64,000 nucleotides of DNA from Candidatus Latescibacterota bacterium (GTDB taxonomy: Bacteria; Latescibacterota; UBA2968): assembly GCA_965222605.1 (NCBI GenBank), contig OZ244960.1, forward strand, positions 2,688,001 to 2,752,000, read 5' to 3'. Of this stretch, positions 10,646 to 40,768 are shown piece after piece. The number at the start of each line of letters is the position of its first letter. Within the stretch, counting starts at the first letter, position 1. The notes under the pieces were generated by a model, which was not told the DNA's origin, did no database searches, and saw only the letters and a list, made by a program, of their open reading frames with translations. Made by a program: the position numbers and the translations under genes.

Positions 10646-10668
10646 CTCCTGATTCTTTACATCAGGAG
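10646..10668 (+). other. Hairpin just 3' of the putative variable region
   Basis: CTCCTGAT-tctttac-ATCAGGAG. Confidence 0.6.
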
Positions 10669-10676
10669 TCTATCTT

Positions 10677-10966: not shown

Positions 10967-11512
10967 ATGTGTAAACGAATCAGGGCTTTTGGTATTATCG
11001 CCTTGGCACTGTTGATTGCCATACTGTCCCCTGTTTATGGGAATGGGATAGCTAATCCGCCGAAGAATCAAGCACCTGTAGCGTTGGGCAAGATTGATCC
11101 CGTGACGATAGGTGTTGGTCCCGTGACTGTGGATGTATCGGGCAAATTCAGTGATGTGGATGGAGACACCTTGTATTTTACAGCGGCGGTGAGTGATACA
11201 GCCATTGCAACGGTGAGCGTGGATGGTAGTAAGGTGATCATCAAACCTGGGGCGAAGGCGGGCAATACGACGGTGACGGTGACAGCGACCAATCTATGGG
11301 GGTTGCGAGCGACGCAGAACATTGGCGTGGTACGTGAGGAGAACACAGTCCTGGAAAACATAGCCTGTTATGTGTTGGCACCGATTGGATTAGTAGGGAT
11401 CTCTTTACCTATCTTCTTAAATTTTAGTGTCAATATAAGTCCAAACTTTAATATTAATATTGGTCCAAAATTCAAGATTCGAAAAAATTACATGAACAAG
11501 CCGCGATCCTGA
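10967..11512 (+). CDS. Secreted protein with one cadherin/Ig-like domain
   Basis: AAGGAG SD, signal peptide, NQAPVA...FSDVDGDTLYF...TVTVTAT. Confidence 0.75.
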   Translation: MCKRIRAFGIIALALLIAILSPVYGNGIANPPKNQAPVALGKIDPVTIGVGPVTVDVSGKFSDVDGDTLYFTAAVSDTAIATVSVDGSKVIIKPGAKAGNTTVTVTATNLWGLRATQNIGVVREENTVLENIACYVLAPIGLVGISLPIFLNFSVNISPNFNINIGPKFKIRKNYMNKPRS

Positions 11513-11525
11513 ACCGGAAATCGCA

Positions 11526-16609: not shown

Positions 16610-18058
16610 ATGCCCAAACGAAACGACCTGAAAAAAATAATGCTCATCGGCTCTGGTCCCATCGTCATCGGACAAGCCTGTGAATTTGACTACTCGGGCA
16701 CACAAGCCTGCAAAGCCCTCAAAGAAGAGGGATACGAAGTCGTGCTGGTCAACAGCAATCCCGCCACCATCATGACCGACCCCGAAATGGCTGACCAGAC
16801 ATACCTCGAACCCGTCACACCCGAAGTATGCGCAGCCATCATCGAAAAAGAACGCCCAGATGCCCTCCTCCCAACACTCGGCGGACAAACGGGCCTCAAC
16901 ACAGCCATGGCCCTGCACGAACAGGGAACACTCGAAAAATTCGATGTCGAAATGATCGGCGCAAAACCACACGCCATTGAAAAAGCGGAAAACCGCGAAG
17001 CCTTTCAAAAAGCCATGGGCAAAATCGGCCTCGACTTCCCCAAAGGCCGATTCGCCTACACCCTCAAAGAAGCACTCGCCATCACTGCTGAAATCGGATT
17101 CCCAGCCATCATCCGCCCATCCTACACCCTGGGCGGCACAGGCGCTGGCACCGCGTACAACATCGAAGAATTTAGACACGCTGCTGCACACGGCCTCAGC
17201 CTATCGCCCACATCTGAGATCCTCGTAGAAGAATCCATCATCGGCTGGAAAGAATTCGAACTCGAAGTCATGCGCGACCAAAACGACAACGTCGTCATCA
17301 TCTGCGCCATAGAAAACTTCGACCCAATGGGCGTTCACACGGGCGACTCTATCACCGTGGCACCAGCGCAAACGCTCACCGACAAAGAGTACCAGGAAAT
17401 GCGCGATGATGCCATCGCCTGCATCCGCGAAATCGGCGTGGAAACCGGCGGCTCCAATATCCAGTTTGCAGTAGATCCCAACACGGGCCGGCGCGTCGTC
17501 ATAGAAATGAACCCCCGCGTATCCCGCAGTTCTGCACTCGCCTCCAAAGCCACGGGCTTTCCCATTGCCAAAATAGCCGCCAAGCTCGCCATTGGATACA
17601 CCCTGGACGAAATACAAAACGACATCACGCGCGAAACACCCGCCTCATTTGAACCCACCATCGACTATTGCGTCATCAAAATCCCGCGCTGGACATTTGA
17701 AAAATTTCCCCAAACCGCTGACATCCTGGGCACACAAATGAAATCAGTAGGTGAAACCATGGCCATAGGTCGCACGTTTAAAGAAGCACTGCAAAAAGGC
17801 TTGCGCTCTCTCGAAATCGGGCGCGCGGGTTTTGGCGCCGATGGCAAAGACATCCCCCCCAACACCCTCACCCGCGAAGCCCTCGAACGCGGCCTGCGCG
17901 AACCCAATTCGCAACGACTAACCTATCTCAAAACTGCTTATGACGCGGGATTGTCTGTACAGGAAATTTTTGACGCCACCAAAATTGACCCCTGGTTCCT
18001 CCACAACATGCGACAACTCGTCGAAATCGAAAAAGAACTCGCCGCCCTAATGGACTAA
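16610..18058 (+). CDS. carB: Carbamoyl-phosphate synthase large subunit, N-terminal part
   Basis: [48 protein letters not shown]. Confidence 0.95.
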
Positions 18059-18060
18059 CC

Positions 18061-19878
18061 ATGAAAAAACAGCACACCCTCAATGACTTAAAATCGCGTA
18101 TCTCCCGCGCTGACCTGCACAAAGCCAAACGCCACGGCTTCTCCGACCGCCAACTGGCACACCTGTGGCGCAGTGATGAATGGGCTGTTCGCGCCTTGCG
18201 AAAAGAACTCGGCGTCGCGCCCGTTTTCAAAACCGTAGATACATGCGCGGCCGAATTTGAAGCCTATACACCGTATCACTACTCAACTTATGAGACAGAA
18301 ACCGAAGCCGTGCGATCCAATCGCCAAAAAATCATGATCCTGGGCGGCGGTCCCAATCGCATTGGACAGGGCATCGAATTCGACTATTGTTGTTGCCACG
18401 CCTCCTATGCCCTCAAAGAAGACGGCTTTGAGACCATCATGGTCAACTCCAATCCCGAAACCGTCTCCACGGACTACGACACATCCGACAAACTCTACTT
18501 CGAACCGCTCACTGCCGAAGACGTACTCAACATTGCCGATGTTGAACAACCCGACGGTGTCATCGTTCAATTCGGCGGGCAAACACCCCTCAACCTCGCG
18601 CGCGACCTCGAACGCGGGGGCCTCAACATCGCCGGCACATCGCCCGACGCCATTGACCTGGCCGAAGACCGCAAGCGCTTTGGCGCCCTCATCAAAGAAC
18701 TGGGCATCCGACAACCCGAAAACGGCACCGCAGTAAGCACCGACGAAGCAATCGCCATTGCCAAACAAATCGGATATCCCGTCCTCGTGCGCCCCTCTTA
18801 CGTACTCGGAGGCCGCGCAATGGCGATCGTATATGACCGCGACGCCCTCATCGCCTATATGCGCAATGCCATAGAAGCCTCTCCTGAACGGCCCATCCTC
18901 ATCGACCGGTTCTTAGAAGACGCACACGAATTTGATGTCGATGCCGTAGCAGACCCAACAGCAGTCGTCATCGGCGGCATCATGCAACACATCGAAAGTG
19001 CGGGCGTTCACTCTGGCGATAGCGCCTGCGTATTGCCCCCCTATCAGATCTCCGACGCCAACCTCGATGAACTGCGACGTCACACCCACGCACTCGCCAG
19101 AGCACTCAATGTAGTTGGCCTCATGAACATTCAGTTTGCAATTCAAGGCGAAGACGTATTTATTATCGAAGTCAATCCCAGGGCATCGCGCACTGTCCCC
19201 TTTGTCAGCAAAGCCATTGGCGTACCCCTGGCCAAAGTCGCTGTCCGCGCAATGGTCGGGCGCACACTTGTAGAACAGGACTTCACCCGGGAAGTACCCA
19301 TCAATCACATCGCCGTCAAAGAAGCCGTCTTGCCCTTCAACAAATTTCCCGGCGTTGACACCGTCCTCGGTCCCGAAATGAAATCCACCGGCGAAGTCAT
19401 GGGCATAGATACCGACTTTGGCCTCAGCTTCCAAAAAGCGCAACTCGGCGCAGGCGTGCGCTTGCCCCAGGAGGGAACGGTATTTTTAAGCGTCAACGAC
19501 CGCGACAAAGAAGGGCTTGTACCCATTGCCCAACAACTATCCGACATGGACTTTCGCCTGATTGCCACACGAGGAACGCACGCCTTTCTCCAAAACCACA
19601 ACATTGCCTGTAATTTGATCCTCAAACTTCAAGAAGGGCGCCCAAATATCCTCGACGCCATCAAAAACGGCGAAATATCTCTCATGATCAACACGCCCGC
19701 GGGAGAGCAATCCCAGGCCGCTGATCCTGAAATTCGCAAAGCCGCCGTTCAATACGGCCTGCCCTACACAACCACCTTATCGGGCGCGGCTGCCGCTGTT
19801 GCCGGCATCCAATCGCTCAAAAACAACAGCACAATTCGCATCCGTTCACTCCAGGATTTTCATAATGAACTGGTCTGA
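18061..19878 (+). CDS. carB: Carbamoyl-phosphate synthase large subunit, C-terminal part
   Basis: GFSDRQLA, KTVDTCAAEF, GPNRIGQGIEFDY, EVNPRASRT, MGS domain. Confidence 0.95.
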   Translation: MKKQHTLNDLKSRISRADLHKAKRHGFSDRQLAHLWRSDEWAVRALRKELGVAPVFKTVDTCAAEFEAYTPYHYSTYETETEAVRSNRQKIMILGGGPNRIGQGIEFDYCCCHASYALKEDGFETIMVNSNPETVSTDYDTSDKLYFEPLTAEDVLNIADVEQPDGVIVQFGGQTPLNLARDLERGGLNIAGTSPDAIDLAEDRKRFGALIKELGIRQPENGTAVSTDEAIAIAKQIGYPVLVRPSYVLGGRAMAIVYDRDALIAYMRNAIEASPERPILIDRFLEDAHEFDVDAVADPTAVVIGGIMQHIESAGVHSGDSACVLPPYQISDANLDELRRHTHALARALNVVGLMNIQFAIQGEDVFIIEVNPRASRTVPFVSKAIGVPLAKVAVRAMVGRTLVEQDFTREVPINHIAVKEAVLPFNKFPGVDTVLGPEMKSTGEVMGIDTDFGLSFQKAQLGAGVRLPQEGTVFLSVNDRDKEGLVPIAQQLSDMDFRLIATRGTHAFLQNHNIACNLILKLQEGRPNILDAIKNGEISLMINTPAGEQSQAADPEIRKAAVQYGLPYTTTLSGAAAAVAGIQSLKNNSTIRIRSLQDFHNELV

Positions 19879-22910: not shown

Positions 22911-22951
22911 AAAAACACCCGCTCAGTATAAGCGGGTGTTTTTGTTTTTTT
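22911..22951. terminator. Bidirectional intrinsic terminator
   Basis: AAAAACACCCGCT-cagtata-AGCGGGTGTTTTT plus T-run. Confidence 0.85.
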
Positions 22952-23211
22952 TAGCGTTGATATACGTCGCGACGATGAGCGATACGGTGGATGATAACGC
23001 ACTGATTTGTATCATCAATTTCATAAAGAATGCGGTAGTCTCCTACGCGAATACGCCACGAATTTGGGCGACCAACCAGTTTTTCCACTCTTGAAGGACG
23101 TGGCTCTGATTCCAGTTGGAGAAGATGTCGGTTAATACGTTGACGAATATGGCCCTGCAACCTACGGCGTTCTCGTTCTGCTGCTGAACGCATATGAACA
23201 GCGTAAGCCAT
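22951..23211 (-). CDS. RelE/ParE-family toxin
   Basis: EPRPSRVEKL, WRIRVGDYRILYEI, HRRDVY. Confidence 0.92.
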   Translation of the reverse strand: MAYAVHMRSAAERERRRLQGHIRQRINRHLLQLESEPRPSRVEKLVGRPNSWRIRVGDYRILYEIDDTNQCVIIHRIAHRRDVYQR

Positions 23212-23213
23212 TT

Positions 23214-23468
23214 CTAAGATACTTCTCCGGTTTCACGGAGCAAATCGCGCAAAGGTCGCGTTTCGCTATTCTCCTCGTTCGCCTCTTCCATTAACATGGC
23301 GTCAACAGCATCCTGCAAGTGCAGAGGAAGCGTCTCCCAATCTGTTTCCCGAGCTACCTTTTGAAGTAACGTCTTGAAATCGTCATATCCAAGTATCACC
23401 TCAATAACCTCACCCGAGTCATCATATACCCATTTTGGAGAACGAGGTTTTTCGAGAATGCGTGTCAT
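23214..23468 (-). CDS. Putative cognate antitoxin
   Basis: Small acidic ORF 2 nt upstream of toxin; TTGACA-17-TATTTT further upstream. Confidence 0.75.
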   Translation of the reverse strand: MTRILEKPRSPKWVYDDSGEVIEVILGYDDFKTLLQKVARETDWETLPLHLQDAVDAMLMEEANEENSETRPLRDLLRETGEVS

Positions 23469-24436: not shown

Positions 24437-25840
24437 TTACAACCCATCCCTCTTCATCCTATTTCTCAAAACCATCCTCGAAATACCCAGAAGCGCGGCA
24501 GCGTGAACCTGATTCCCCTCTGTTCGCCGCAACGCCTCTTGAAGCAGTGCCCTCTCAAACGCGGGCAGATTCATTTGATCCTCTAATAGAGATTGCACCA
24601 CCTGTTCAACCCCACTATCTACAATCGGGGCACTCTTAAAAAGATCAAAACCCAGGTCATCCGCCTCAATTTCCCCATCACCGCACAAAATCGCTGCCCG
24701 CTCAACCGCATTCTTCAACATGCGAACATTACCCGGAAACACCTGTCGCTGGAGCAAATCCTCAGCCTCTTTCGAAAACCCCATCAGCGGCTTCCGCAGA
24801 TCGCGGGCATAGTCAGCCAAAAAATGCCGCGCCAGGAACAGAACATCCCCCGCCCGCTCGCGCAACGGCGGCACCTGAATCGCGAACACATTCAACCTGT
24901 AATACAGATCCTCTCTAAAAGCCCCTTCCCTCACCGCTGCAGCAAGCACCCTATTGGTAGCTGCAACCACGCGCACATCTACTTCCATCTCACGACTACT
25001 CCCCACGGGTCGGATGCGTCGATCCTCCAAAGTCCGCAACAAACGCACCTGCATCTCAAGCGGCATATCCCCAATCTCATCCAGAAACAGCGTACCCCCG
25101 TGTGCCAGATCAAAATGGCCCTTCTGATCTGCCTTCGCGTCTGTAAACGCGCCCTTCTTGTGCCCAAAGAATGCGCTCTCAAATAAATTGCCCGGAATCG
25201 CAGAACAATTCACGGGAATAAACGGACCGCCAGCGCGAACACTCTCGCAATGCACAGCCCGAGCAACCAGTTCTTTCCCCGTACCCGTCTCCCCAACAAT
25301 AAGCACCGTCGTATGATCAGTCGCGGCCACCTGCTGAATCTCCGCCTTCATCTTCACAACCGCCTGACTCTCCCCTATCAGCGCATTCAAACCGCCTCTC
25401 TCCCGCTCCCGCGCCTCAAACCGGTCCAGCCTCGCCTGCACCCTATTCTTCTCTTTCCGAAGCACCTGATAGCGCACCGTGCGCTGGATAGCAGCATTCA
25501 GATCCTCCACCTTGAAGGGTTTATTAAAAAAATCAAACGCCCCTTCTCGCAGCGCGCGAAACGCATTCTCGGACTCCTTAACCCCAGTGATCACAATCAC
25601 CTCGGTCTCAGGAGCAACAGATCGCACCCGCCGAAGCACCTCAAACCCATCCATACCCGGCATCTTCACATCTGTAATCACAATATCCACAGCCTGGCTC
25701 TCCACCACCTCCACGCCCTTCTCCCCATTCGCCGCTTCGATGACCGTATGCCCCCTCGCAATGAGAAACTTCCCAATCGCAGCCCGGATATGTGCATCAT
25801 CATCAATCACCAAAATCGTCATGCTGACCTGCTCACCCAT
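24437..25840 (-). CDS. Sigma54-dependent response regulator (NtrC/AtoC family)
   Basis: REC (ILVIDDD, TDVKMPGMDG), GETGTGKE, GAFTDA, LFLDEIG, Fis HTH. Confidence 0.95.
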   Translation of the reverse strand: MGEQVSMTILVIDDDAHIRAAIGKFLIARGHTVIEAANGEKGVEVVESQAVDIVITDVKMPGMDGFEVLRRVRSVAPETEVIVITGVKESENAFRALREGAFDFFNKPFKVEDLNAAIQRTVRYQVLRKEKNRVQARLDRFEARERERGGLNALIGESQAVVKMKAEIQQVAATDHTTVLIVGETGTGKELVARAVHCESVRAGGPFIPVNCSAIPGNLFESAFFGHKKGAFTDAKADQKGHFDLAHGGTLFLDEIGDMPLEMQVRLLRTLEDRRIRPVGSSREMEVDVRVVAATNRVLAAAVREGAFREDLYYRLNVFAIQVPPLRERAGDVLFLARHFLADYARDLRKPLMGFSKEAEDLLQRQVFPGNVRMLKNAVERAAILCGDGEIEADDLGFDLFKSAPIVDSGVEQVVQSLLEDQMNLPAFERALLQEALRRTEGNQVHAAALLGISRMVLRNRMKRDGL

Positions 25841-25956
25841 TCTTATTCCCCCACATTTACATGCTTTGCTCCTGGAAAAATAAGACGGGATTTGCAAAAA
25901 GCAAGATCACTCATTCAGAATACGGGCATATTATGTTTTCGTGCATTTTGATGTCC

Positions 25957-28413
25957 TTATGCATTGCGACAAAACGCAATCCGCTTGTTAATATCCCTCG
26001 CGACCTCAAGAACCTCCACCGGCGCGCGAACGACTTCACCAGTACGCTGTCGCAGGGCAACGACAAGAGGTGCCAACGCGACGGCATTCGCTCTCGACAG
26101 GACCTCGACAAGATCGCGCTCCGAGACGCCATTAGCGATCAACTCGGGCACAAACTGTAGCATCTCGGACATCATCATTTCATTATCAGGTACGAACACA
26201 GAATACGCCGAACGGAACACACCCATAGCCATCATATGTCTTTTCTTTAGCAGTAGTGCCAAAGCATGTACATACCTTGTTCGCCATGTAAACACCACCT
26301 TCTCATTATCGGTCAAGGCACCAAGTCTTCCTTCAAGCTCTTCACACATCTGCAGAGCTTCTTCCGCACGCCCCATTTTGATTTGCATCATACCCTTTTG
26401 GGACAACGCCCAGGCGACCAGAACCTGAATCTCTGGTGCATCGCTGCTGCCAAAGCGGGTGATCACCTCATCATACGCCTCTATAGCCAATCTCAACTCT
26501 CCCAGTTGGACTTGCATATCTCCCCTTTGGGACAACGCCAGCGCGACCAGAACCTGGATCTCTGGTGTATCGCTGCTGCCAAAGCGGGTGATCACTTCCT
26601 CATACGCCCCTACCGCCAGGCCCAACTCTCCCAGTTGGACTTGCATATCTCCTTTTTTTAACAACGCCAACGCGACCGGAAACTGAAAGTCGGGAGATTT
26701 GCTACTGCCAAAGCGGGTGATCACTTCCTCATACGCCGATACCGCCAAACCCAACTCGCCGAGTTCATCTCGTGCTCTTGCCCCATGGATCAACACGCGG
26801 GCCATCCGCGCCAGAAGTGTTTGGTCGCCCGTCTCGTCGAATCGCTCGACCATCTCGTTGCACACCGCGACCACCCCCTGGAAATCTCCCAATTTCTCAT
26901 AAGCAATCGCCTTCATATGCAATATGTAGGCGATGAGGGACTCTGGCATTAGAGATGAATCCACGCCTCCTGAAGCCATAAAATGGTCACCTATCTCGAT
27001 AACCCTTTCGAATTCTCTCTCCTTGAGTGCCGTTTGGATTTCCTCTTTCAAACGCAGTTCCGCCGTAAATTGAACATTTTCCGTCGCTTTATCCGATATA
27101 TATCTGATAGCCGACCATGCCACGCGTAAAAAACTATCCTCAGAACGCGGCTGTTCGGCGAGCGCACGCTCGATACCCTCGCGAATAACCTTTGACCCCG
27201 CCGCCTCCAAACTCAGCCGACCAAACACCTGGTACAATTCGCCTATCCCGTAGAACGCCACCATGAAATGAATCAGATTTCTCACAACCGTCACCTCGTC
27301 GCGCTCGCGTCGCAGCTTGTAGTAAATACTGTAGAGAGGTTCCGCGGCGGCGTACAATCGCTTCCTGCCAGTCCCCTCCACAATGACCGCACCCCGGTTG
27401 ACGAGTCGTCCGAGCATAGTCGATACAGGCCGAACCTCCATACGCGCGCGCGCCGCAATCTCGCCCGTACTCGATGGTCGCCAAAGGTCAATCAACGCGA
27501 GATACACGCGGCGTTCTCCCCTGCCCAGGACCTCCAGATGACCGCGAAAATACTCGGTATGATCGTCGATCAGCATCACCAGTTCTTCCATCAACTGGCG
27601 CAGTGATCGGTGTTGCGCGAACCCGGCAACGATGACCAGAAGGCGGGGATTGCCACCCGTCAAGATCTCGAGCGGCCTGATCTCGTGCTCGCTCACCTCA
27701 TCGCCGCTGACCACCTCCCAAAGGTGACGGCATTCTTCGGTACCCAGCGGTTCCAGATCGATGATTCGGAACAACTCAAAAAACGGCTCGCCCGCGTCTT
27801 CCAAACCCTCAAAGCGACTCGTCGCAGTAGCGAGCAGCATAATCCGAGGCTCTGACTCCAACGCGTCGCGCAACTGCCAGCCAAAATCATCTTCCACATT
27901 TTCGCAAAGCGCCTGCAGGTTTTCCACCATGAGAACGAGTTTTTTACCCAACCGGTCCGCCGCATCCAGGACAGCGGCAAGGACGCGATCCGCGAGCATC
28001 TCCTCGCGCCAGCGATCGGTCAGATCGGCATGCGTCTCTCGCAGTTCCCCTGCCAGATCGGGATCGTACTTTACACTCTCCCGCGCAAGATGGAACAGGG
28101 TATCGAGCCAGAAATCCGCGAGATTAAATACCTCGTGACTCTCTTCCATAAACCGAACCGGCAAAAAACATCTACAAAGTTCGTCATCAGTATTCAACTC
28201 CGCCGCAACCCGCGCGAGCAACATCGTCTTTCCCCGACCCCGAGACGCGACCACCAGAACATCCTGACACGATGGGGAATTGATATTCCCGCGCAAAACC
28301 TCAAGCACCATATCGAGTTCGCGCTCCCTCACCGCGAACTGCTCAATCACCTCCTCATCGGACTGAAACGTCCCCGGATTGAACTTGCGGATTGGGCGAT
28401 CAAGTTTGTTCAT
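25957..28413 (-). CDS. STAND-like ATPase - winged HTH - TPR protein (paralogue B, 818 aa)
   Basis: ASRGRGKT, LVLMVEN, LTGGNPR, wHTH GEIAARAR..VSTMLGRL, 43-aa TPR-like repeats. Confidence 0.85.
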   Translation of the reverse strand: MNKLDRPIRKFNPGTFQSDEEVIEQFAVRERELDMVLEVLRGNINSPSCQDVLVVASRGRGKTMLLARVAAELNTDDELCRCFLPVRFMEESHEVFNLADFWLDTLFHLARESVKYDPDLAGELRETHADLTDRWREEMLADRVLAAVLDAADRLGKKLVLMVENLQALCENVEDDFGWQLRDALESEPRIMLLATATSRFEGLEDAGEPFFELFRIIDLEPLGTEECRHLWEVVSGDEVSEHEIRPLEILTGGNPRLLVIVAGFAQHRSLRQLMEELVMLIDDHTEYFRGHLEVLGRGERRVYLALIDLWRPSSTGEIAARARMEVRPVSTMLGRLVNRGAVIVEGTGRKRLYAAAEPLYSIYYKLRRERDEVTVVRNLIHFMVAFYGIGELYQVFGRLSLEAAGSKVIREGIERALAEQPRSEDSFLRVAWSAIRYISDKATENVQFTAELRLKEEIQTALKEREFERVIEIGDHFMASGGVDSSLMPESLIAYILHMKAIAYEKLGDFQGVVAVCNEMVERFDETGDQTLLARMARVLIHGARARDELGELGLAVSAYEEVITRFGSSKSPDFQFPVALALLKKGDMQVQLGELGLAVGAYEEVITRFGSSDTPEIQVLVALALSQRGDMQVQLGELRLAIEAYDEVITRFGSSDAPEIQVLVAWALSQKGMMQIKMGRAEEALQMCEELEGRLGALTDNEKVVFTWRTRYVHALALLLKKRHMMAMGVFRSAYSVFVPDNEMMMSEMLQFVPELIANGVSERDLVEVLSRANAVALAPLVVALRQRTGEVVRAPVEVLEVARDINKRIAFCRNA
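26378..26764 (-). repeat. Three intragenic 129-bp tandem repeats (43-aa TPR-like units)
   Basis: CCAAAGCGGGTGATCAC recurs at 26450, 26579, 26708. Confidence 0.9.
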
Positions 28414-28500
28414 TGCGCGTCTCCTAATGATTCTCAGCGGTCAGCAGTCAGCTTTTAGCTCCCCACCCATCCACCCCAGAGCAACAGTGCTTAATTGGCA

Positions 28501-28565
28501 TTGTCAACTAAATCGTTGACAAAATAATATCTGACAAATTTTTGTCAATAAAATTGTTGACAAAA
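28501..28565. promoter_or_regulatory. Operator-like palindromes upstream of paralogue B
   Basis: CAACTAAATCGTTG (28505), TGACAAATTTTTGTCA (28532), CAATAAAATTGTTG (28546). Confidence 0.55.
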
Positions 28566-28635
28566 ATTGAGAGGCGATACAAGTTGTTATATATTATTGG
28601 GATATGGCACGCAATATCGCGCATGGAATGAGAAT

Positions 28636-28686
28636 AAACCACACAAAAAGCCCAATGGTCTCCTCTAAACCGTTGGGCTTTTCTTA
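28636..28686. terminator. Hairpin duplicated at 32830-32880
   Basis: AAACCACACAAAAAGCCCAA(T/C)GG(T/C)CTCCTCTAAACCGTTGGGCTTTTCTTA in both. Confidence 0.8.
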
Positions 28687-28758
28687 GCCTGACTGCGATA
28701 GCAGCTCATCAGCTATGGGGTCGTAGGGATAAACCTCGACGGATGGTTGACCTGTATT

Positions 28759-28785
28759 GTAGGGGCGGCGCCCCTGTGCCCGCCC
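28759..28785 (+). repeat. REP family B
   Basis: GTAGGGGCGGCGCCCCTGTGCCCGCCC. Confidence 0.85.
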
Positions 28786-28866
28786 GTAGGATGGCAGCCC
28801 CCGTGTAAAAGCGCTACGGGGCAGTCCTGAGGAGTTTGATGTACGATTCACAAACGATTATCGACA

Positions 28867-30969
28867 TCATTTTAATCCGTCAATTCTTGTCTCAATATTC
28901 TTACAGATATCCGCCGCGACCTCAAGGACTTCCACAGGCGCGCGAACCTCCTCGCCAGCACGCTGTAGCAGGGCAACGATGAGGGGTACCAACGCGTCCA
29001 ATTTCTCCTTGTCGCTCGACAGGATCTCGACAAGGTCGCACTCCGAGGCACCATGCGCGATCAACTCAGGCACAATTTCTTGCATCTCGCGCATGGTTAC
29101 TTCGTTGTTGAGTGGAAATGCGGCATACGCAGAGCGAAATGCTTCCAGGGCACCCCGACTTTTTTTTTGGACCATCAGTACCAAAGCTCGCACACACCTT
29201 GCACGCCATGTAAACTCAATTTCTTTGTTGTCGGTCAAGGCACCAAGCCTTCGTTCAAGCTCTTCACAGGTATGTAGAGCTTCTTTTGCATGGCTCATCT
29301 TGATTTGTGTCATACCTTTGTCGAACAACGCCCAAGCGGTCAGATACTGGAGATTGGGTGCATCGCTGTCACCAAAGCGTACGACCACTTCATCATAAGA
29401 CGTTACCGCAGACGCGAACTCGCCGAGTTCCCCGTGCGCTAATGCCTTGTAAGTAAATGCCAGAGCGATTAATGGCTCTGGCACTCGAGACCAATTTGCG
29501 CTCCGATCAGTAAAAGCTTGCCCCAAAGTCTCGATAACCTTCTCGAATGCCCCCTCTTTTAACGCTGTAGTAATCTCTTCGAACAGTCGTTCGACGTTCT
29601 CATTGTCGATTGACGCAGCGAGGTTAGATGCCTGGTCAGTGCTTGGCCGCACTATGTTAGAGAATACACTACCGACTTGAGGTTGTTTTGCGATTGCTCG
29701 TTCAATACCCTCGCGAATCACCGGCAATCGCGCCGCTTCCGAAATCAGTCTGTCGGACATCTCTGCCAGTTCCGCTTCGCTATAGAACACTGCCATAAAG
29801 TGGATTAGATTTGCTACAACCGCCGCCTCGTCGCGCTCACGCCGTAGCTTGTAGTAGATGCTGTAGAGACGTTCCGCGGCAACGTACAGCCGTTTTCTAC
29901 CAGTCCCCTCCACGATGACCGCACCCCGGTTGACGAGGCGGCCGAGCAGGGTTGATACGGTTCGAATGTCCTTGCGCGCGCGTGCCGCGATCTCGCCCGC
30001 GTTCGACGGTTGCCAAAGGTCAACCAACGCGAGATACACGCGGCGTTCGACACTGGCCAGGACCTCCAGATGCCCGCGGAAATACTCAGTATGGTCGTCA
30101 ATCAGTGTCACCAGTTCTTCTATCAAATGGCCTAACGACCGGTGATTTGCAAACTGAGCAACCATAACCAAGAGGCGAGGATTGCCGCCGGTCAGAATCT
30201 CGAGCGGCCTGATATCACGATTGCTCACTTCGTCGCCACTGACTATCTGCCACAAACGACGGCAGTCCTCAGTAGTCAATGGTTCCAGATCGAGGCTTCG
30301 GAACTGCTCGAAGAACGGCTCCTCCGCGTCGTCCAGCCCTTTGAAACGACTCGTAGTGGTGGCAAGCAGCATGATCTGAGGCTCTGATTGCAACGCGCTG
30401 CGGAGTTGCCAGCCGAAATCGGCGTCCACGTTTTTGCAGAGGTCCTGTAGATTTTCGACCATGAGTACGAGTTTTTTGCCCAGCCGATCCGCTGCGTCCA
30501 GGACAGCAGCAAGGACGCGATCCGCGAGTTCCTTCTCGCGCCAGCGATCAGTCAGGTCGGCGTGTGTCTCTCGCAGCTCCCGTGCGAGCGCGGGATCGTG
30601 CCTGGCACTCTCGCGCGCAAGGTGGAACAAGGTTTCGAGCCAGAAATCGGCGATATTGAGTACCTCGTGACTCTCTTCCATAAACCGAACCGGCAAAAGA
30701 CACTCAGAGAGTTTGTCATCAATTTTCAAATCCACCGGAACCCGAAGGTTCAACTCCGCCGCAACCCGCGCGAGTAACATGGTCTTTCCCCGACCACGAG
30801 GCGCGACTACCAGAACGTGCTGACACGATGGTGAATCGATATTCCCGCGCAGGACCTCAAGCACTATATCGAATTCGCGTTTCCTGACCACGAACTGCTC
30901 AACCACCTCCTCGTCGGATTGGAGCGTCCCCGGATTGAACTTGCGAATTCGTTGATCGGACTTGTTCAT
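28867..30969 (-). CDS. STAND-like ATPase - winged HTH - TPR protein (paralogue A, 700 aa)
   Basis: Start MNKSDQRIRKFNPG by alignment with paralogue B; APRGRGKT, LVLMVEN, LTGGNPR; ATGA overlap with upstream ATPase. Confidence 0.85.
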   Translation of the reverse strand: MNKSDQRIRKFNPGTLQSDEEVVEQFVVRKREFDIVLEVLRGNIDSPSCQHVLVVAPRGRGKTMLLARVAAELNLRVPVDLKIDDKLSECLLPVRFMEESHEVLNIADFWLETLFHLARESARHDPALARELRETHADLTDRWREKELADRVLAAVLDAADRLGKKLVLMVENLQDLCKNVDADFGWQLRSALQSEPQIMLLATTTSRFKGLDDAEEPFFEQFRSLDLEPLTTEDCRRLWQIVSGDEVSNRDIRPLEILTGGNPRLLVMVAQFANHRSLGHLIEELVTLIDDHTEYFRGHLEVLASVERRVYLALVDLWQPSNAGEIAARARKDIRTVSTLLGRLVNRGAVIVEGTGRKRLYVAAERLYSIYYKLRRERDEAAVVANLIHFMAVFYSEAELAEMSDRLISEAARLPVIREGIERAIAKQPQVGSVFSNIVRPSTDQASNLAASIDNENVERLFEEITTALKEGAFEKVIETLGQAFTDRSANWSRVPEPLIALAFTYKALAHGELGEFASAVTSYDEVVVRFGDSDAPNLQYLTAWALFDKGMTQIKMSHAKEALHTCEELERRLGALTDNKEIEFTWRARCVRALVLMVQKKSRGALEAFRSAYAAFPLNNEVTMREMQEIVPELIAHGASECDLVEILSSDKEKLDALVPLIVALLQRAGEEVRAPVEVLEVAADICKNIETRIDGLK

Positions 30970-32216
30970 TGCGCGTCTCCCGGTGTTTCGTCGTCGGAAT
31001 GGCGGTTTTCGAGAGATATATAGTGATCGCTGAAACGCGCCGACCACCAGTCCTTCAGCAGACGCGATGGAAAGCGATGTCCCTCGTCGCTGACTTCGAG
31101 ATATCCGTCGTGCATCAGAATTTCAAGTGTATCTGCGATGCGCCCCTGTGCATCGTCAACCACCATGGCGTATAACCCTTCGAGGCAACGACGGGCTCCT
31201 GGCGTGAATACGTCCTGGGTAGCTGCCTCGGCGAGGATCTCCATGGCGATGGTGTGGTTCTCATCTTCCAACGCCTCCTTGAGGCGCGTCTCGTAGTGTA
31301 CAAGGTCGTTCTGTCCGGAAGGACCGAGAAGCCCCGTACGATAGACCTTCTCAACATCTTCCATCGTCACCCGGTCTCGTCCCTGCATGGTGGCATGGTC
31401 CCCCAAACGGGCAAAGAAGGACTGCACATGGTGAGGGATGCCAACACCGAGTGCGTCATACACTACGTTTACCACCCCGTCCTCAACCCGTAATTCGTAG
31501 CTCTCCGCGAGACTTTGGAAACACTCTACACTGGTGTCGCGGTCCCACGGTCCCAAACGAAAAGGTTCGAGATGATTGATGCGATCGGGTATGCCCAACC
31601 GATTTACGAAAGGCGTAAGCCCAATGCTACCAGATACGATGAGGACCAAAGAACCGTCTTCGATATCTTGAAGCACTCCGCGCAACCAGCTCAGAAACTC
31701 ATCAACCCGTTGGAATCCATCTTCATCGCGAAGCACACGCTTGAGGAATATCGGCAACTCGTCAATGACGAGGAGAACAGATTGCTTGCGCGCAGCACAA
31801 TGCCGAAGTAGCTCTTCTCCTTGGCGCCGCCAGTTCCCGGCATTCAGAATGGCCCGGAACTTCACGCTAACGTCGTATGCACCGATCTCCTCGACCCTGC
31901 CGAACAAGCGTTTCATGGCGGTACCGACACGCACGACACGCGATGTGATGGGACGAATGGGATGCACGGCCTGTGCGATGTCTGCGATTACGTCCTCAGC
32001 GCAAGTCGCTCCCTCGACATCAACAAAAAGAAATATCCATCCCTTAGTCTCAAGCCGTCGCCCGAGTTCCCGTGCAATACTGGTCTTCCCCATGCGCCGT
32101 TGACCAGTCAACAATATGTGGTTGCGGTCGCGGACGCGTGTCTCCAGTATCCGCAACTCACGCTCACGATTAAAAAAATTGTCGCCGCTTACCCAGCGGC
32201 CGGTCGATGAATTCAT
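30966..32216 (-). CDS. Small STAND-like/AAA ATPase without sensor repeats
   Basis: FFNREREL, GQRRMGKTS, LLVIDELP, VSGSIGL, GVGIP. Confidence 0.85.
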   Translation of the reverse strand: MNSSTGRWVSGDNFFNRERELRILETRVRDRNHILLTGQRRMGKTSIARELGRRLETKGWIFLFVDVEGATCAEDVIADIAQAVHPIRPITSRVVRVGTAMKRLFGRVEEIGAYDVSVKFRAILNAGNWRRQGEELLRHCAARKQSVLLVIDELPIFLKRVLRDEDGFQRVDEFLSWLRGVLQDIEDGSLVLIVSGSIGLTPFVNRLGIPDRINHLEPFRLGPWDRDTSVECFQSLAESYELRVEDGVVNVVYDALGVGIPHHVQSFFARLGDHATMQGRDRVTMEDVEKVYRTGLLGPSGQNDLVHYETRLKEALEDENHTIAMEILAEAATQDVFTPGARRCLEGLYAMVVDDAQGRIADTLEILMHDGYLEVSDEGHRFPSRLLKDWWSARFSDHYISLENRHSDDETPGDAQ

Positions 32217-32241
32217 TGCTCCTCGCTTTCTTTTTTCAATT

Positions 32242-32313
32242 CGACAGAATTGTCGTCAACAGAATTGTCGAAAAATATATCAAACAACAAAATTGTTGTC
32301 AACAGAATTGTCG
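32242..32313. promoter_or_regulatory. Four 14-bp palindromic operator-like boxes
   Basis: C(G/A)ACA(G/A)AATTGT(C/T)G at 32242, 32257, 32285, 32300. Confidence 0.75.
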
Positions 32314-32498
32314 AAAACCCAAAAAGCAATATAAATCGTTCTTTGTCATTGGTATATGACACGCAATACCGCGTATTGCCACTGCGTGAGCACTATGCAA
32401 AATCGGTCTTGATAAATTCGATTCTCAATATATCTTCATTGTATCTACTACCTAGAAGAGGAAAGATGTCGATCAGCTATAATCAATTGGAGACAATC

Positions 32499-32789
32499 AT
32501 GCTACCAGAAAACCGTATTCCGACGCATCCTGGGAAAATCCTTTTGGAAGAATTTCTGAAACCCTCAGGAATAACCCAGGTGGCGTTTGCCAAACACATT
32601 GAAGTGCCACTTCAAAGAGTTAACGAGATCATCCGTGGCAAGCGGGGCGTAACACCTGAAACAGCCTGGTTATTTTCTCAAGCACTGGGTACAACACCTG
32701 AATTATGGATGAATCTTCAACGGAATTACGATCTGGCTAAGACCCGACGACAAAAAAAGATCTCAAAACTTCAACTTGATCCGTTTTAA
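32499..32789 (+). CDS. higA: HigA-family antitoxin (no adjacent toxin)
   Basis: PTHPGKILLEEFLKP, RVNEIIRGKRGVTPETA, WMNLQ. Confidence 0.9.
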   Translation: MLPENRIPTHPGKILLEEFLKPSGITQVAFAKHIEVPLQRVNEIIRGKRGVTPETAWLFSQALGTTPELWMNLQRNYDLAKTRRQKKISKLQLDPF

Positions 32790-32980
32790 GGACTCGTATC
32801 GCATTCTCACCAAACAGAATAGAAATAGAAAACCACACAAAAAGCCCAACGGCCTCCTCTAAACCGTTGGGCTTTTCTTATTTTGGCCTCAATGAAACAG
32901 GTCAAATACGCTTGCCTATCGCCCCTGAAAATATATTTTGGGCGCGAGTCTCTTTTCAACAACGCACAGAAAGGTGCAGA

Positions 32981-34519
32981 ATGAAGCGTTTGTGTATCCT
33001 GCTTGTGGTCGTTGCAAGCTGTCTATGGACCTGGCTACCTCTGGCGCACGCATCACAATCCAGACCTCTCCCCGACTTTGACGGAAACGGCGTTGTGGAT
33101 CTTCCAGACTTTTTGCTATTTGTCGAACACTTCGGGACAAGTCGTGGTGATGAGACGTATGAAGACCGATTTGATCTGGATAGCGATGGCGCGATTGAAT
33201 TTTCTGATTTTCTGATCTTTGCCAGCAACTTTGGCAAAACAGTGCCCCAGACGGTGGACGCGATAATAAATTTGCCGCTACGCGCCATTCATGCTGCGGG
33301 GAATTGGGGAGATACTGGCTATGTTGTAGATAAATGGGAAGCCGCGGGGAGGGTCGGAGCACTCATACCTCTGGACTATATCGAATGGCTAAAGAGCCTG
33401 CATGTCAACTGGATCGGCCTTTCCATTGCGCTGCATTACAACGACAGCATGGATAGCACGGTCGAGCGCGTGTACTCATCAGATGTAGATATTCGCACTT
33501 TTTCAGATAAAGCACTCAGACAATTGATCCGGGAATTTAGAAATCACGGGATTGACGTATATCTGACCCTGGCATTCGAAGCCTATAAGGCTGAAACCGC
33601 CGCACGCCCGGTACGAAGGTGGCAACTCGGAGACCCGGCACCTGGCGGCGTTCCTCCTGATGATCCGAATGTCTTCGGATTGATATTGCCCCAATTCTGG
33701 CCCTGGCGTCCAGATCATCCGAATCACCGGCGTTTTGTCGCCGAGTTCTGGGCGACCTATACGCAACAGGCGGTACATTTTGCCAGAATTGCCGAGGACG
33801 AGGGGGTGCGTTTATACTCGTTGGGCACGGAGACTGACCGGCTCTTTCGCACGCGTTCAGGACGTTATATGACGAATGATTTTGGTCGAGAACTCAGATT
33901 AATGGTGGAAAGTGTGCGCGCCGTGTACAGTGGCCTGCTAACCTATGACATGCACTACGACGTACTCGTAGCATCCCACTTTTACGGACCGGGATCGGGA
34001 GCAGGTCATCTATGGGCAGATCTGGATCTCGACATCGTTGGAATCAGTGCGTGGTTTCCACTGACGGACTCGCGTCCATCAACGGTACTGAGCGTCGAAA
34101 GTTTCCAGGCGCGTTACAGGCAGATATTCCAAAACCAGCTTATTCCGCTTGCGAACACAAATCCCGACCGGCCCATTGTGTTTACCGAATACGGTGCTAT
34201 GGATGTGGTTGAAACATCCGAAAGACCAGGTGATACATCAGCGCAAAACCGGCGATTCGTATTTACCGACTCGAACCGCAATGGGCTGGATGACGGGCGA
34301 GAAACTCAGGCCAACATCTACGAGGCACTCATCAACACCATAGCTCAGTACCCCGGGATAGTAACTGGTGTCTTCTTTTGGGATAATTGGATAACCAGCG
34401 ACGAACTGTGGGCGGGATACTGGGCACGTCGCCGCAATTATGCCATCCGTCGCAAGCGGTCCGAGGAAATCGTGCGATCAGCTTATGCGTCCTATGCGGA
34501 ATCATCTCAGAGCGACTAA
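32981..34519 (+). CDS. Secreted protein: EF-hand/dockerin-like module plus GH113/GTA-type TIM-barrel glycoside hydrolase
   Basis: Signal peptide; PDFDGNGVVDLPDF / FDLDSDGAIEFSDF; LGTE, DIVGISAWFPL, IVFTEYG. Confidence 0.75.
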   Translation: MKRLCILLVVVASCLWTWLPLAHASQSRPLPDFDGNGVVDLPDFLLFVEHFGTSRGDETYEDRFDLDSDGAIEFSDFLIFASNFGKTVPQTVDAIINLPLRAIHAAGNWGDTGYVVDKWEAAGRVGALIPLDYIEWLKSLHVNWIGLSIALHYNDSMDSTVERVYSSDVDIRTFSDKALRQLIREFRNHGIDVYLTLAFEAYKAETAARPVRRWQLGDPAPGGVPPDDPNVFGLILPQFWPWRPDHPNHRRFVAEFWATYTQQAVHFARIAEDEGVRLYSLGTETDRLFRTRSGRYMTNDFGRELRLMVESVRAVYSGLLTYDMHYDVLVASHFYGPGSGAGHLWADLDLDIVGISAWFPLTDSRPSTVLSVESFQARYRQIFQNQLIPLANTNPDRPIVFTEYGAMDVVETSERPGDTSAQNRRFVFTDSNRNGLDDGRETQANIYEALINTIAQYPGIVTGVFFWDNWITSDELWAGYWARRRNYAIRRKRSEEIVRSAYASYAESSQSD

Positions 34520-34604: not shown

Positions 34605-34850
34605 ATGAAAGCATCTATTCTCGACTTAAGACGACGCATGAAAGATGTCTTGCTCGCGCTTGACCGCAACGAATCCGTCACCATTTTTTATCGAGGCAAG
34701 GAAAAAGCCATCCTGTCTCCCACCCGACAGCGAACAGACAAATCTGTAAAAGACCATGAAGCTTTTGGGATGTGGCGGGACAGAAAAGATATGGCAGACG
34801 TCGATGCTTACGTCCGCAATTTGAGAAAAGGCCGCTTGAATGATTTTTGA
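34605..34850 (+). CDS. Phd/YefM-like antitoxin
   Basis: AAGGAGG SD; ASILDLRR...VTIFYRGKEKA; overlaps PIN gene; upstream palindrome TGCACACATTATGTGTACA. Confidence 0.8.
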   Translation: MKASILDLRRRMKDVLLALDRNESVTIFYRGKEKAILSPTRQRTDKSVKDHEAFGMWRDRKDMADVDAYVRNLRKGRLNDF

Positions 34851-35217
34851 TACCGATGTCATAATATGGGTTTTCAGAGGCCATGAAGGGGCTGCAAAAC
34901 TCGTTGAAAGTACCGATGATCGTCAGATATCAATTGTTACGTATATGGAATTTATCCAGGGTGCGAGAAATCGGCAGGAGTTAAAAACGATCAAGAATTT
35001 TCTCACTGAGCACGCCTTTCAGACCTTACCTCTCACTGAAAATATCGGACACAGAGCATCTGTATATATGGAAGAATATACCCTTGAGACAGCACTGTAT
35101 ATGGCAGATGCCTTGATTGCAGCAACAGCTATTGAAAATCATTTAACACTTTGTACAGCGAATAGAAAACACTACCGCCAAATCAACGAACTCAATCTAA
35201 AAATCTTTCGGCCCTGA
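34840..35217 (+). CDS. vapC: VapC (PIN) toxin
   Basis: IFDTDVII, TYMEF, DALIAATA, TANRKHY. Confidence 0.92.
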   Translation: MIFDTDVIIWVFRGHEGAAKLVESTDDRQISIVTYMEFIQGARNRQELKTIKNFLTEHAFQTLPLTENIGHRASVYMEEYTLETALYMADALIAATAIENHLTLCTANRKHYRQINELNLKIFRP

Positions 35218-40366: not shown

Positions 40367-40372
40367 TTGATC

Positions 40373-40768
40373 ATGCGACTGTATTTGGATACAGCCCCGG
40401 TCATTTATGTTGTTGAGCAGGTACCAGATTTTTCAGAAAAAATTTTGCACTATATCCAAAAACCCGATATCGAGCTTGTTGTGAGTGATTTAACGTGGAT
40501 GGAGTGCCGCGTTAAACCATTGACAGAGAATAAAGAACCCCTTTTGGCTGATTATGATAAATTTTTTAGCCAATCCATTATTGAAATTGTCGAATTGTCC
40601 CGAAGAGTCCTGGAACGCGCCGCACATATCCGTTCACAATATAACATCAAGACGCCTGATGCCATTCATCTGGGGGCGGCTATTATCTCGAAATGCGATA
40701 TATTTTTAACGAATGATCGCAGGTTAGAGCGTTTTAAGGATATTCACATCACGGTGAAAAGGATTTGA
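40373..40768 (+). CDS. vapC: VapC (PIN) toxin
   Basis: LYLDTAPVIY, TWMEC, KTPDAIHLG, FLTNDRRL. Confidence 0.9.
   Translation: MRLYLDTAPVIYVVEQVPDFSEKILHYIQKPDIELVVSDLTWMECRVKPLTENKEPLLADYDKFFSQSIIEIVELSRRVLERAAHIRSQYNIKTPDAIHLGAAIISKCDIFLTNDRRLERFKDIHITVKRI

Follow-up and report, generated by a model that had tools for sequence, protein, structure and literature searches.

An adjacent AAA+ and STAND-TPR gene pair as a candidate NLR-like conflict module in Latescibacterota and other bacterial phyla

Results

Organization of the locus

Three ORFs on the minus strand of the window (the whole stretch of 64,000 nucleotides analyzed here, from a Candidatus Latescibacterota bacterium) were studied, and all three were present where the initial annotation had placed them. 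Gene A (30966-32216) encodes a 416-aa AAA+ ATPase with a C-terminal winged helix and gene B (28867-30969) a 700-aa STAND-type NTPase, counted from its ATG; both were assigned from the ORF and its translation. Gene C (25957-28413), assigned from its ORF and Pfam matches, encodes a paralog of B that has 818 aa and a longer TPR array, and it forms a separate transcription unit. The TGA stop of A overlaps the ATG of B (ATGA) at the junction GCGCAATGAACAAG, and B is translationally coupled to A through this overlap, as had been annotated. B and C do not form one operon: the 453-bp spacer between them holds a terminator hairpin as well as a promoter-like site separate from that of A-B.

For the A-B operon, a sigma-70-like promoter (TTGACA-17-TATATT, 11/12, with TG; 32274-32302, minus strand) was predicted by a consensus scan alone and is surrounded by short repeats, and the candidate C promoter, also sigma-70-like (TTGACA-16-TATTTT, 10/12; 28521-28548, minus strand), lies inside TTGTCAA/TTGACAA inverted repeats; both calls are consensus matches and do not constitute functional evidence. 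The terminator-like hairpin directly downstream of B (28647-28681, no strand assigned) is one copy of a direct repeat of ~57 bp. Together with the second copy (32841-32875, no strand assigned) it brackets the segment that comprises B, A and a 107-aa HTH_3 (HigA/XRE-like) gene divergent from A (32466-32789, plus strand; Pfam HTH_3, E 8e-10). Among the 24 related loci collected by searching with A, both repeat copies were also found in L003, L009 and L021, and the HigA-like gene was matched upstream of A in four (L001, L005, L009 and L021). Being conserved in only 4/24 loci, the latter was dropped as a possible regulator of the pair and is regarded as a variable neighbor.

Protein A

Protein A carries the Walker A motif GQRRMGKT (residues 38-45), the Walker B motif LLVIDELP and the GxP motif G-I-P at 259-261, in agreement with the annotated Walker A, intact Walker B and GxP. 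The P-loop and D152/E153 were invariant across 32 homologs of A, and with fully canonical motifs the protein is apparently an active ATPase. Pfam matches were to AAA_22 (33.6 bits, above the cut-off of 27), AAA_16 and ATPase_2 (PF01637; 31.0 bits, below the gathering cut-off of 33.2). A weak match to 2qen was the sole result of the PDB sequence search, and the ESM Atlas returned only generic 'ATP-binding protein' clusters. When the AF2 model of A (pLDDT 83.3, pTM 0.80) was compared with solved structures by Foldseek, the best matches were the archaeal PF01637 ATPases PAB2304 (2qen, E 1.9e-11) and SSO1545 (2fna, 8.5e-11) and Orc1/Cdc6 (2qby_A, 1.3e-9), with ~396-425 aligned columns and, for the best ones, over ~396 of the 416 residues; by this fold match A consists of an AAA+ core, a lid and the C-terminal winged helix. 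It also has in common with these proteins the pre-P-loop motif FF(D/N)RE.EL, but differs from them in an invariant extra N-terminal STGRWVSG tail and in being always partnered with B. Judged from the modeled fold, an AAA+ protein of the Orc1/Cdc6 or PF01637 kind is a better description of A than the STAND ATPase of the initial annotation. A recent paralogy of A and B was also considered and was dropped, as hhalign aligned the P-loop region alone with a probability of 40.

Proteins B and C

In both B and C, a STAND-type NTPase is joined to a winged helix and a TPR array, and the C-terminus forms a conserved cap; in B the winged helix is accompanied by a helical arm, the TPR array is short and the helical cap comprises ~100 aa. 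Pfam assigned AAA_16/AAA_22/ATPase_2, a TrmB-type wHTH (~300-365) and TPR families to both, with AAA_16 at 36.8-37.0 bits (cut-off 32.6). The two proteins thus possess a P-loop NBD, a GxP helical domain with winged helix, and a C-terminal repeat sensor, all of them features of the STAND superfamily. The winged helix of B is the standard STAND wHTH and need not bind DNA. The PDB sequence search with B gave TPR matches only and none to the NTPase, and the ESM Atlas scores for its C-terminal cap (<=0.80) were uninformative. For the AF2 model of B (pLDDT 76.1, pTM 0.41) the top Foldseek match was 6mfv (PH0952, a STAND protein with TPR; E 1.7e-9, with a low TM-score of 0.22-0.24), followed by Avs3, CED-4, Apaf-1 and NRC3; MalT also matched.

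The annotated paralogy of B and C was borne out, with 62% identity over 633 aligned residues, 54% in a second segment covering the last ~226 residues, and 78.5% (tblastn) within the N-terminal 400 residues; the TPR part was the divergent part, as had been noted. Conservation among B/C proteins was ~0.8 in the NTPase-wHTH part versus ~0.45-0.55 in the TPR part. The reading LMVEN at the Walker B position was likewise found in both proteins. A canonical Walker B (hhhhD[D/E]), a further feature of the STAND superfamily, was absent from all 34 B/C proteins, each of which had E-N at this position together with a GxGKT Walker A; the GxP motif GG[NSD]PRLL was found in 32/34, and its first G was altered in the other two. 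Among distant partners of A encoded on plasmids, that of Clostridium estertheticum kept E-N (IVENLQDL) and those of Moraxella osloensis and C. tagluense had D-N, so that E-N or D-N, never D-E, occurred in every homolog examined. As read from these alignments, B has an intact P-loop, and across the family Asn stands in place of the catalytic acid of its Walker B.

Tandem TPR units of 129 bp (43 aa) were detected within C by TRF (26393-26765, minus strand; 2.9 copies, 85% nucleotide match). Of 32 B/C genes in related loci, 16 showed the 129-bp period again (2.5-14.5 copies, 75-95% match), and B ranged from 516 to 1232 aa across these loci. By these comparisons the repeat array of B expands and contracts. 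In L006 and L010 the B proteins had no TPR at all, which indicates that the sensor can be done without, at least for some time.

Orthologs of C (815-819 aa) were present, beyond the window itself, in 8/24 loci, all of them syntenic Latescibacterota loci. The C sequences formed a single clade (SH-aLRT 99), and on this phylogeny C appears in one Latescibacterota lineage only. TA modules occupied the B-C spacer in related loci.

Pairing, distribution and mobility

A B-type N-terminal module started 0-55 bp after A in 24/24 loci, and the two genes were always adjacent and usually overlapping; as all 24 loci were found by searching with A, this count refers to A-seeded loci. The loci came from 4-5 phyla, including Latescibacterota, Binatota, Pseudomonadota and Gemmatimonadota. 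Distances among A and among B sequences were correlated (r = 0.93; Mantel, 0/2000 permutations), which indicates that A and B co-diverge. Distant pairs with 19-27% identity to A were found on Clostridium and Moraxella plasmids; the partner on the C. estertheticum plasmid matched B over 453 residues (E 2e-18), and hhalign probabilities were 99.5 for the Moraxella partner and 99.8 for that of C. tagluense. A pair on a Segatella plasmid was left out of the count, its partner being only weakly B-like (probability 16). The distribution of the sequences shows horizontal transfer of the A-B pair between phyla and onto plasmids. At E<=0.001 the family comprised 3951 representative clusters, with close clusters of A and of B numbering in the thousands; the close relatives were from uncultured lineages and a single one was named ('tetratricopeptide repeat protein'). 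No relatives of A were found in the phage records searched, which is neutral evidence.

The initial annotation had proposed that one active ATPase serves several sensors. The pairing itself was upheld by the 24 loci and the distant plasmid pairs, but the general unit is one A to one B, and C, with its own candidate promoter and its narrow distribution, does not support several sensors per ATPase. A was degraded in 3/24 loci, once through a DDE transposase. These were three of the nine syntenic Latescibacterota loci, and B and C were still intact ORFs there; they can thus persist without A, which weakens a strict dependence. A search for fusions of A gave four matches; an A-B fusion (P0244, an N-truncated A plus B on one contig) was not used as Rosetta-stone evidence, as it was too rare and possibly an artefact of sequencing or gene calling. 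A complex prediction for the L006 pair (A of 414 aa and TPR-less B of 522 aa, with alignments for each), run without controls, scored 0.00 and says nothing either way.

Effector domains and genomic context

Pfam gave no match of A, B or C to a nuclease, TIR, SIR2, protease or TM family. In 148/150 family representatives the NTPase began no more than 17 residues from the N-terminus, and with no N-terminal extension these have no fused effector, so that the annotated absence of an effector extends beyond the window. When 94 flanking ORFs of 16 loci were compared, no third gene was conserved and no integrase, transposase or replication gene was consistently linked.

The TA and R-M neighbors that had been annotated are real: the window encodes ParE (22951-23211), PIN genes (34840-35217 and 40367-40768) together with a type II MTase (41293-42984) and its REase (42961-43989). 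Flanking genes of related loci included R-M, Abi, TA and candidate defense genes. PADLOC matches (E<=1e-8) were obtained for 19 of the 94 flanking ORFs, spread over 10 of the 16 loci, one of which had a generic RtcR-like sigma-54 activator only; in the control, a crude one drawn from one genome, 0/31 outer-window ORFs matched (Fisher p = 0.003). A defense-like context of the A-B pair is therefore supported.

At E<=0.1, PADLOC v2.0.0 matched none of A, B and C to Avs. Matches of the three proteins to PADLOC v2 and NCBIfam were at the level of the P-loop (mad8 with E 1.7e-5 at residues 21-112, PDC-S01, BrxF and others) and none was accepted as membership. No model in either collection names the pair, in line with the view that it belongs to no named system. 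A full-text literature search of partial coverage returned no paper on the pair, and a term search of Kaur et al. 2020 (PMC7159879) gave nothing relevant.

Discussion

Comparison with known systems

Among published concepts, the nSTAND2 two-gene STAND operon comes nearest to the pair. It is described as a mobile bacterial operon with a constant core of two STAND-type NTPases, one active and the other with impaired, eroded NTP-binding motifs and fused to variable effectors such as GT4 and HEPN, and its authors predict a hetero-multimer with a counter-invader role (Kaur, Iyer, Burroughs, Aravind 2021, eLife, PMC8195603). The A-B pair resembles it as a mobile operon of two adjacent NTPase genes. 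However, A resembles Orc1/Cdc6 more than a classic STAND, B keeps its P-loop and loses only the second (catalytic) Walker B acid, and B is fused to a TPR sensor and not to a GT4 or HEPN effector of the kind described there. Pfam gave no nSTAND2 match for A or B and weak nSTAND1/3/5/6 matches only, from a set that may have no nSTAND2 model.

With Avs/AVAST, B has in common a STAND NTPase with a large TPR-like C-terminal sensor, a defense-island context and horizontal transfer, and its fold matches Avs3 (8dgc) and Avs5 (9jap) by Foldseek. Avs proteins have N-terminal effectors, the removal of which abolishes cell death, and the paper distinguishes 589 clades (Lee et al. 2026, Nature, PMC13581612). 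In contrast, B is without a fused effector and has an obligate separate AAA+ partner instead, and no curated PADLOC Avs model matches A, B or C. The best structural match of B, PH0952, has the same domain order (NBD, HD with GxP, WHD, arm, TPR sensor) and, in addition, a domain for DNA binding that is ArsR-like and lies at the N-terminus (Lisa et al. 2019, NAR, PMC6468293). By analogy, autoinhibition through sensor-NBD contacts is plausibly common to both proteins.

In NAIP/NLRC4 and plant sensor/helper NLR pairs, a diversifying sensor goes with a conserved partner NLR, which it activates, and the pairs begin as linked genes; unlike eukaryotic helper NLRs, A has neither a death nor a pore-forming domain. 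This likeness is one of logic and not of ancestry, and activation of A by B would be conjectural.

Possible function of the pair

Taking sequence, context and distribution together, the A-B pair may well be an NLR-like conflict module of two genes that is self-contained and horizontally mobile and is most likely directed against phages or mobile elements. A defense role, the binding of A to B and the output are unproven and candidate only; no experiment or named family ties either protein to defense. B would be the ligand sensor and switch, binding nucleotide and hydrolyzing it poorly. Binding of a trigger by the TPR array would free B from autoinhibition, and because of the poor hydrolysis it would then remain 'on'. 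Activated B could recruit or nucleate A, as in NAIP-NLRC4 or sensor/helper NLRs, and A could provide an ATP-dependent step, either as executor (through its winged helix on DNA or by draining ATP) or as a reset factor, giving an output without any enzymatic effector domain. Whether the signal would run from B to A or from A to B, and what the output would be, is purely conjectural. C might be an extra sensor paralog that has lost its own A, and it may share A in its Latescibacterota lineage. Considerably more doubtful is the fully specified form of a sensor/helper NLR pair without enzymatic effector, in which hydrolysis-dead B is locked by its trigger and nucleates A, an A oligomer on DNA or runaway ATP use arrests growth, and orphan sensors like C share A in a small NLR network.

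Alternatively, the pair could be a split regulator of the MalT/PH0952 type, with the B TPR sensing a small molecule or protein and the winged helix of A or B controlling transcription, including that of its own promoters. PH0952, a predicted STAND-TPR transcription factor, is the closest solved fold to B, and A resembles DNA-bound Orc1/Cdc6 with its C-terminal winged helix; yet Pfam found in B or C no dedicated DNA-binding effector domain such as the N-terminal ArsR of PH0952 or that of MalT. Both predicted promoters have repeat-rich, operator-like sequence, but TTGTCAAC, tried as an operator motif and rejected, was not significantly enriched in the window (five matches, equalled in 11/100 shuffles). 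Close by in the window lie a response regulator of the sigma-54 type and a histidine kinase; however, the former, located downstream of C, was dropped as a part of the system because it is merely a syntenic neighbor in 6/24 loci. Furthermore, there are no conserved target genes, the pair occurs in 16 unrelated contexts, and repeat-array turnover and cross-phylum transfer are atypical for housekeeping regulators. Such a regulator is unlikely, though still to be taken seriously.

It is improbable that the pair serves mobile elements as a selfish module for addiction or maintenance, in which A would be harmful unless restrained by B (TA-like) or the pair would serve replication or partition of the element. 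A was never found without B (24/24), yet was lost with B intact in three loci, the order of loss expected if A were the harmful partner; this pattern, however, is from three loci found by an A-seeded search. The presence of the pair on plasmids, the ~57-bp repeat around the segment, the TA modules and IS elements clustered nearby and the Orc1/Cdc6-like fold of A also fit such a module, but nothing in a simple TA or replication module calls for a large TPR array that diversifies, and a consistently linked integrase, transposase or replication gene was missing from the flanks. A non-defense host-interaction or housekeeping chaperone-type system of symbionts with 'eukaryote-like' TPR proteins, suggested by the uncultured origin of the close relatives, the one name among them and the frequent classing of TPR proteins as symbiosis factors in sponge-microbiome papers, is very unlikely, given that B is built upon an NTPase switch with no signal peptide or secretion-linked Pfam domain, that the distant plasmid pairs of Clostridium and Moraxella are from unrelated habitats, and that the gene context is one of R-M, Abi and TA.

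The characterized antiviral STANDs considered here carry a fused effector, the removal of which abolished cell death, and a large effector-free family would point to a different output mechanism. Such a family, invariably accompanied by an active AAA+ partner encoded separately, would be an exception to the usual design of antiviral STANDs. The pair is a compact candidate for defense catalogs, absent from PADLOC v2 and NCBIfam, and the invariant Walker B Asn of B amounts to a natural 'trap' mutation whose meaning is directly testable. If the conflict-module reading is true, the A-B pair would represent, in prokaryotes, an equivalent of the sensor/helper NLR pairs of eukaryotes.

Structure of the locus

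Three ORFs, all on the minus strand, are present as the initial annotation had described: A (30966-32216, 416 aa), coding for a small AAA+ ATPase; B (28867-30969, 700 aa counted from the ATG, with an upstream GTG opening the longest form of the ORF), coding for a STAND-type NTPase-wHTH-TPR protein; and C (25957-28413, 818 aa), a paralogue of B. The three-gene ATPase locus as a whole is real. A and B are coupled by a stop-start overlap, the ATG of B overlapping the TGA stop of A (GCGCAATGAACAAG), and B and C are separated by a 453-bp spacer with a terminator-like hairpin and inverted repeats. A strong sigma-70-like site was found upstream of A (32302-32274, minus strand; TTGACA-17-TATATT, 11/12) and a weaker one upstream of C (28548-28521, minus strand), both being consensus scan matches only. 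From these predicted promoters, A and B would form a single operon and C a separate transcription unit.

A direct repeat of ~57 bp, which includes a bidirectional terminator-like hairpin (hairpins at 28647-28681 and 32841-32875; extended copies at ~28633-28690 and ~32826-32884), brackets a 4.2-kb segment with B, A and a HigA-like gene. Its core has four matches in the window against 0.38 expected, and the element also flanks the A-B segment on both sides in three other loci (L003, L009 and L021). It may mark the edge of a cassette, or may simply be a terminator that has been reused.

Pairing and distribution of A and B

The genome scan seeded with A retrieved 24 loci (given L numbers here) from Latescibacterota, Binatia, Alphaproteobacteria (including Roseovarius and Rhodospirillales), Pseudomonadales and Longimicrobiales. 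The adjacency was obligate, with a B-type module beginning 0-55 bp past A in all 24 of these A-seeded loci. A is intact in 21 of them, at 52-83% identity to the A of the window, and broken in L021, L023 and L024. It is interrupted in L021 by a ~1.3-kb insertion (10640-11918) encoding a DDE transposase (DDE_5, DDE_Tnp_1) and truncated in the other two; B and C remain open in all three. The distances among A proteins followed those among the first 400 residues of B (r = 0.93; 0 of 2000 Mantel permutations reached this value), and such co-divergence shows co-inheritance, not interaction.

The pair is also mobile. Distant relatives of A (19-27% identity) occur in seven plasmid records, four of which were examined. 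An overlapping B homologue lies downstream of the A relative in the plasmids of Clostridium estertheticum (E 2e-18), C. tagluense (probability 99.8) and Moraxella osloensis (probability 99.5; beside QatC/QatD), and in the Segatella plasmid the partner is only weakly B-like. The co-occurrence of homologues as a pair, a check suggested by the initial annotation, was thus found in the A-seeded loci and on plasmids. In a single database protein entry (P0244; 1092 aa, from one contig), a full B follows in frame on an A truncated at its N terminus; this could reflect either a rare fusion or an artefact of assembly or gene calling. Relatives at E<=0.001 numbered 3142 among 8000 scored candidates for B and 2605 among 7999 for A; only one relative among these candidates was named, as 'tetratricopeptide repeat protein'.

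Domains and conserved motifs

In the Pfam scans, A matched AAA_22 (33.6 bits against a cut-off of 27), and AAA_16 and ATPase_2 each slightly below cut-off. The AlphaFold2 model of A (pLDDT 83.3, pTM 0.80) was closest to the archaeal PF01637 ATPases 2qen and 2fna, followed by DNA-bound Orc1/Cdc6 and RuvB, with CED-4 lower in the list; by these matches, A consists of an AAA+ core followed by a lid and, at the C terminus, a winged helix. Across 32 A homologues, little or no variation was seen in the P-loop (GQRRMGKTS), Walker B (D152-E153), the SGSIG segment, G-I-P and the N-terminal STGRWVSG tail.

B and C matched AAA_16 above cut-off, a TrmB-type winged helix at ~300-365 and TPR families. The domain arrangement in the AlphaFold2 model of B (pLDDT 76.1) is uncertain because of its pTM of 0.41. 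The best structural match was 6mfv (PH0952, a STAND protein with TPR), and subsequent matches were Orc1/Cdc6, Avs3, CED-4, Apaf-1, NRC3, Avs5 and MalT; with low TM-scores of 0.2-0.3, the modelled matches support the fold class only and not close kinship. Recent paralogy of A and B was rejected, as the profile comparison aligned the P-loop region only (probability 40).

All 34 B/C proteins have GxGKT and, at the position of Walker B, E-N; GG[NSD]PRLL is found in 32, the first G being altered in the remaining two. A distant plasmid homologue of B (IVENLQDL) retains E-N, and two others have D-N (LLLIDN and ILLIDN). With E-N or D-N in every homologue examined, the missing second, catalytic Walker B acid is a trait of the B family. 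In P-loop ATPases, such a loss predicts nucleotide binding with poor hydrolysis, and B is likewise predicted to bind nucleotide and to hydrolyse it poorly.

With Pfam, A, B and C showed no match to nuclease, TIR, SIR2, protease or membrane families. A full-library search with residues 1-400 of B gave 3951 representatives at E<=0.001 (895 at E<=1e-30), and just 2 among the best 150 of the 3951 had an N-terminal extension of >25 residues. The description of the system as lacking a recognisable effector agrees with both results.

Turnover of the TPR array

The TPR region undergoes repeat turnover. In C, a 129-bp unit (43 aa) is repeated in tandem 2.9 times (85% match), and the 129-bp period recurs in 16 of the 32 B/C genes from the loci, where copy number is 2.5-14.5 and nucleotide match 75-95%. 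B varies from 516 to 1232 aa, and the C orthologues are constant at 815-819 aa. B and C of the window are 62% identical overall, 78.5% over the first 400 residues and 54% across the last ~226, with a divergent middle part; column conservation among B/C proteins is ~0.8 at residues 1-400, 0.45-0.55 at 426-600 and 0.65-0.72 in the C-terminal cap. Diversifying NLR sensors are characterised by arrays of near-identical repeats that gain and lose units, as established for fungal NLRs.

Natural B proteins without any TPR array are encoded in L006 (11242-12810, 522 aa) and L010 (11242-12792, 516 aa), and in both the NTPase-wHTH part is retained, as are the ~100 conserved residues at the C terminus. 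L006, L010 and L022 are flanked by genes of the PADLOC candidate defence system PDC-M03 (HipA-like, HIRAN), with a copy of PDC-M03B on either side of the pair in L006.

Origin of C

C was found only in the window and in the 8 of 24 loci sharing its synteny (gene order GH113-A-B-C-sigma-54 regulator). A quick, midpoint-rooted maximum-likelihood tree built from the N-terminal 410 residues placed the nine C proteins in one clade (SH-aLRT 99), nested within Latescibacterota B proteins and sister (support 94) to B of Latescibacterota loci in other contexts, not to the neighbouring B. From this placement, C looks like the leftover of a second module whose A was lost. That one ATPase serves several sensors, as had been proposed, may hold for this lineage, but the family as a whole is not designed in that way.

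Genomic context

Genes for ParE, for two PIN-domain proteins and for a HigA-like protein are found within ~12 kb in the window, together with a type II R-M system that is complete. ParE with an upstream 84-aa ORF (22951-23468) and the PIN-domain genes (34605-35217 and 40367-40768, one with a preceding 81-aa ORF) are probable type II toxin-antitoxin (TA) pairs. The R-M genes (41293-43989) are convergent and overlapping: a methyltransferase (41293-42984, plus strand; PADLOC MTase_II, E 1.5e-186) and a restriction endonuclease (42961-43989, minus strand; REase_II, E 7e-129). Outside the synteny group of the window, 94 flanking ORFs (three per side where present) from 16 loci were collected. PADLOC models matched 19 of them at E<=1e-8, in 10 of the 16 loci (PDC-M03A/B, PDC-M38/AbiLi, PsyrA, PDC-S32 and type I, II and IIG R-M), the sole match in L008 being a generic RtcR-like sigma-54 activator. 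No match was seen among 31 control ORFs in the outer regions of the window (Fisher p = 0.003), this control being crude, from a single genome and unmatched. The TA and R-M neighbourhood that had been taken to point to defence or signalling is thus real, and the context is of defence type elsewhere too. No neighbour shared by the A-B pairs was found in Pfam scans of the 94 ORFs from these 16 loci.

The B-C spacer, empty in the window, is occupied by differing TA modules in loci of related Latescibacterota (Fic/Doc, MazEF, HigBA or a lone MazE; L001 13899-14641, L002 13854-14611, L021 14335-14925, L023 12297-12650), and it looks like an insertion hotspot. The adjoining GH113-family glycoside hydrolase (32867-34519) has a dockerin-type module, and this ~63-residue N-terminal segment recurs as a 59%-identical copy at 48743-48931, as well as in several of the related loci. 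Two adjacent ORFs of 482 and 605 aa (16610-19878) apparently divide the large subunit of carbamoyl-phosphate synthase between them, and both have pre-ATP-grasp and ATP-grasp domains of their own. A 233-aa ORF (25250-25951, plus strand) antisense to the sigma-54 response regulator appears 'conserved' by tblastn in related loci; most likely, it is no gene and only mirrors the conserved coding sequence of the regulator on the opposite strand.

Interpretation

The nearest published concept to A-B is nSTAND2, a mobile two-gene operon of two NTPases, the inactive one fused to GT4 or HEPN effectors, for which the authors predicted a hetero-multimer (Kaur et al., PMC8195603). The two-NTPase logic is the same; however, B retains its P-loop and is fused to a sensor, whereas the inactive nSTAND2 partner is fused to an effector. 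In the Pfam scans, neither A nor B gave an nSTAND2 match. The pair matched no PADLOC Avs model and lacks the effector that characterises Avs/AVAST (PMC13581612). That paper, by Lee et al., catalogued 589 STAND clades, so the clade of B may be included there, unnamed. A full-text literature search, of incomplete coverage, found no description of the pair, in line with its not having been recognised as a named system.

The best-supported reading, in which our confidence is about evenly balanced, is that A-B is an unnamed conflict module of an NLR-like sensor and a partner ATPase. The TPR array of B would sense the trigger, the hydrolysis defect would turn B into a latch, B would then engage A, and the ATPase and winged helix of A would supply output or reset. 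Counter to strict dependence, B and C are intact despite a broken A in three of the nine syntenic loci, and B proteins without a TPR array occur.

A split MalT/PH0952-like regulator is unlikely: both proteins are among the structural matches of B, but their DNA-binding domain, as described in PMC6468293, is absent from the pair. An addiction or maintenance module is rather improbable; the order of loss, A first and B never first, also fits A as a harmful partner, as seen in three loci only, all retrieved by the A search. A symbiosis-related TPR system is very improbable indeed. The A-B pair itself is real and occurs widely; as a candidate conflict module, it is a variation on the STAND conflict-system theme that has apparently not been described.
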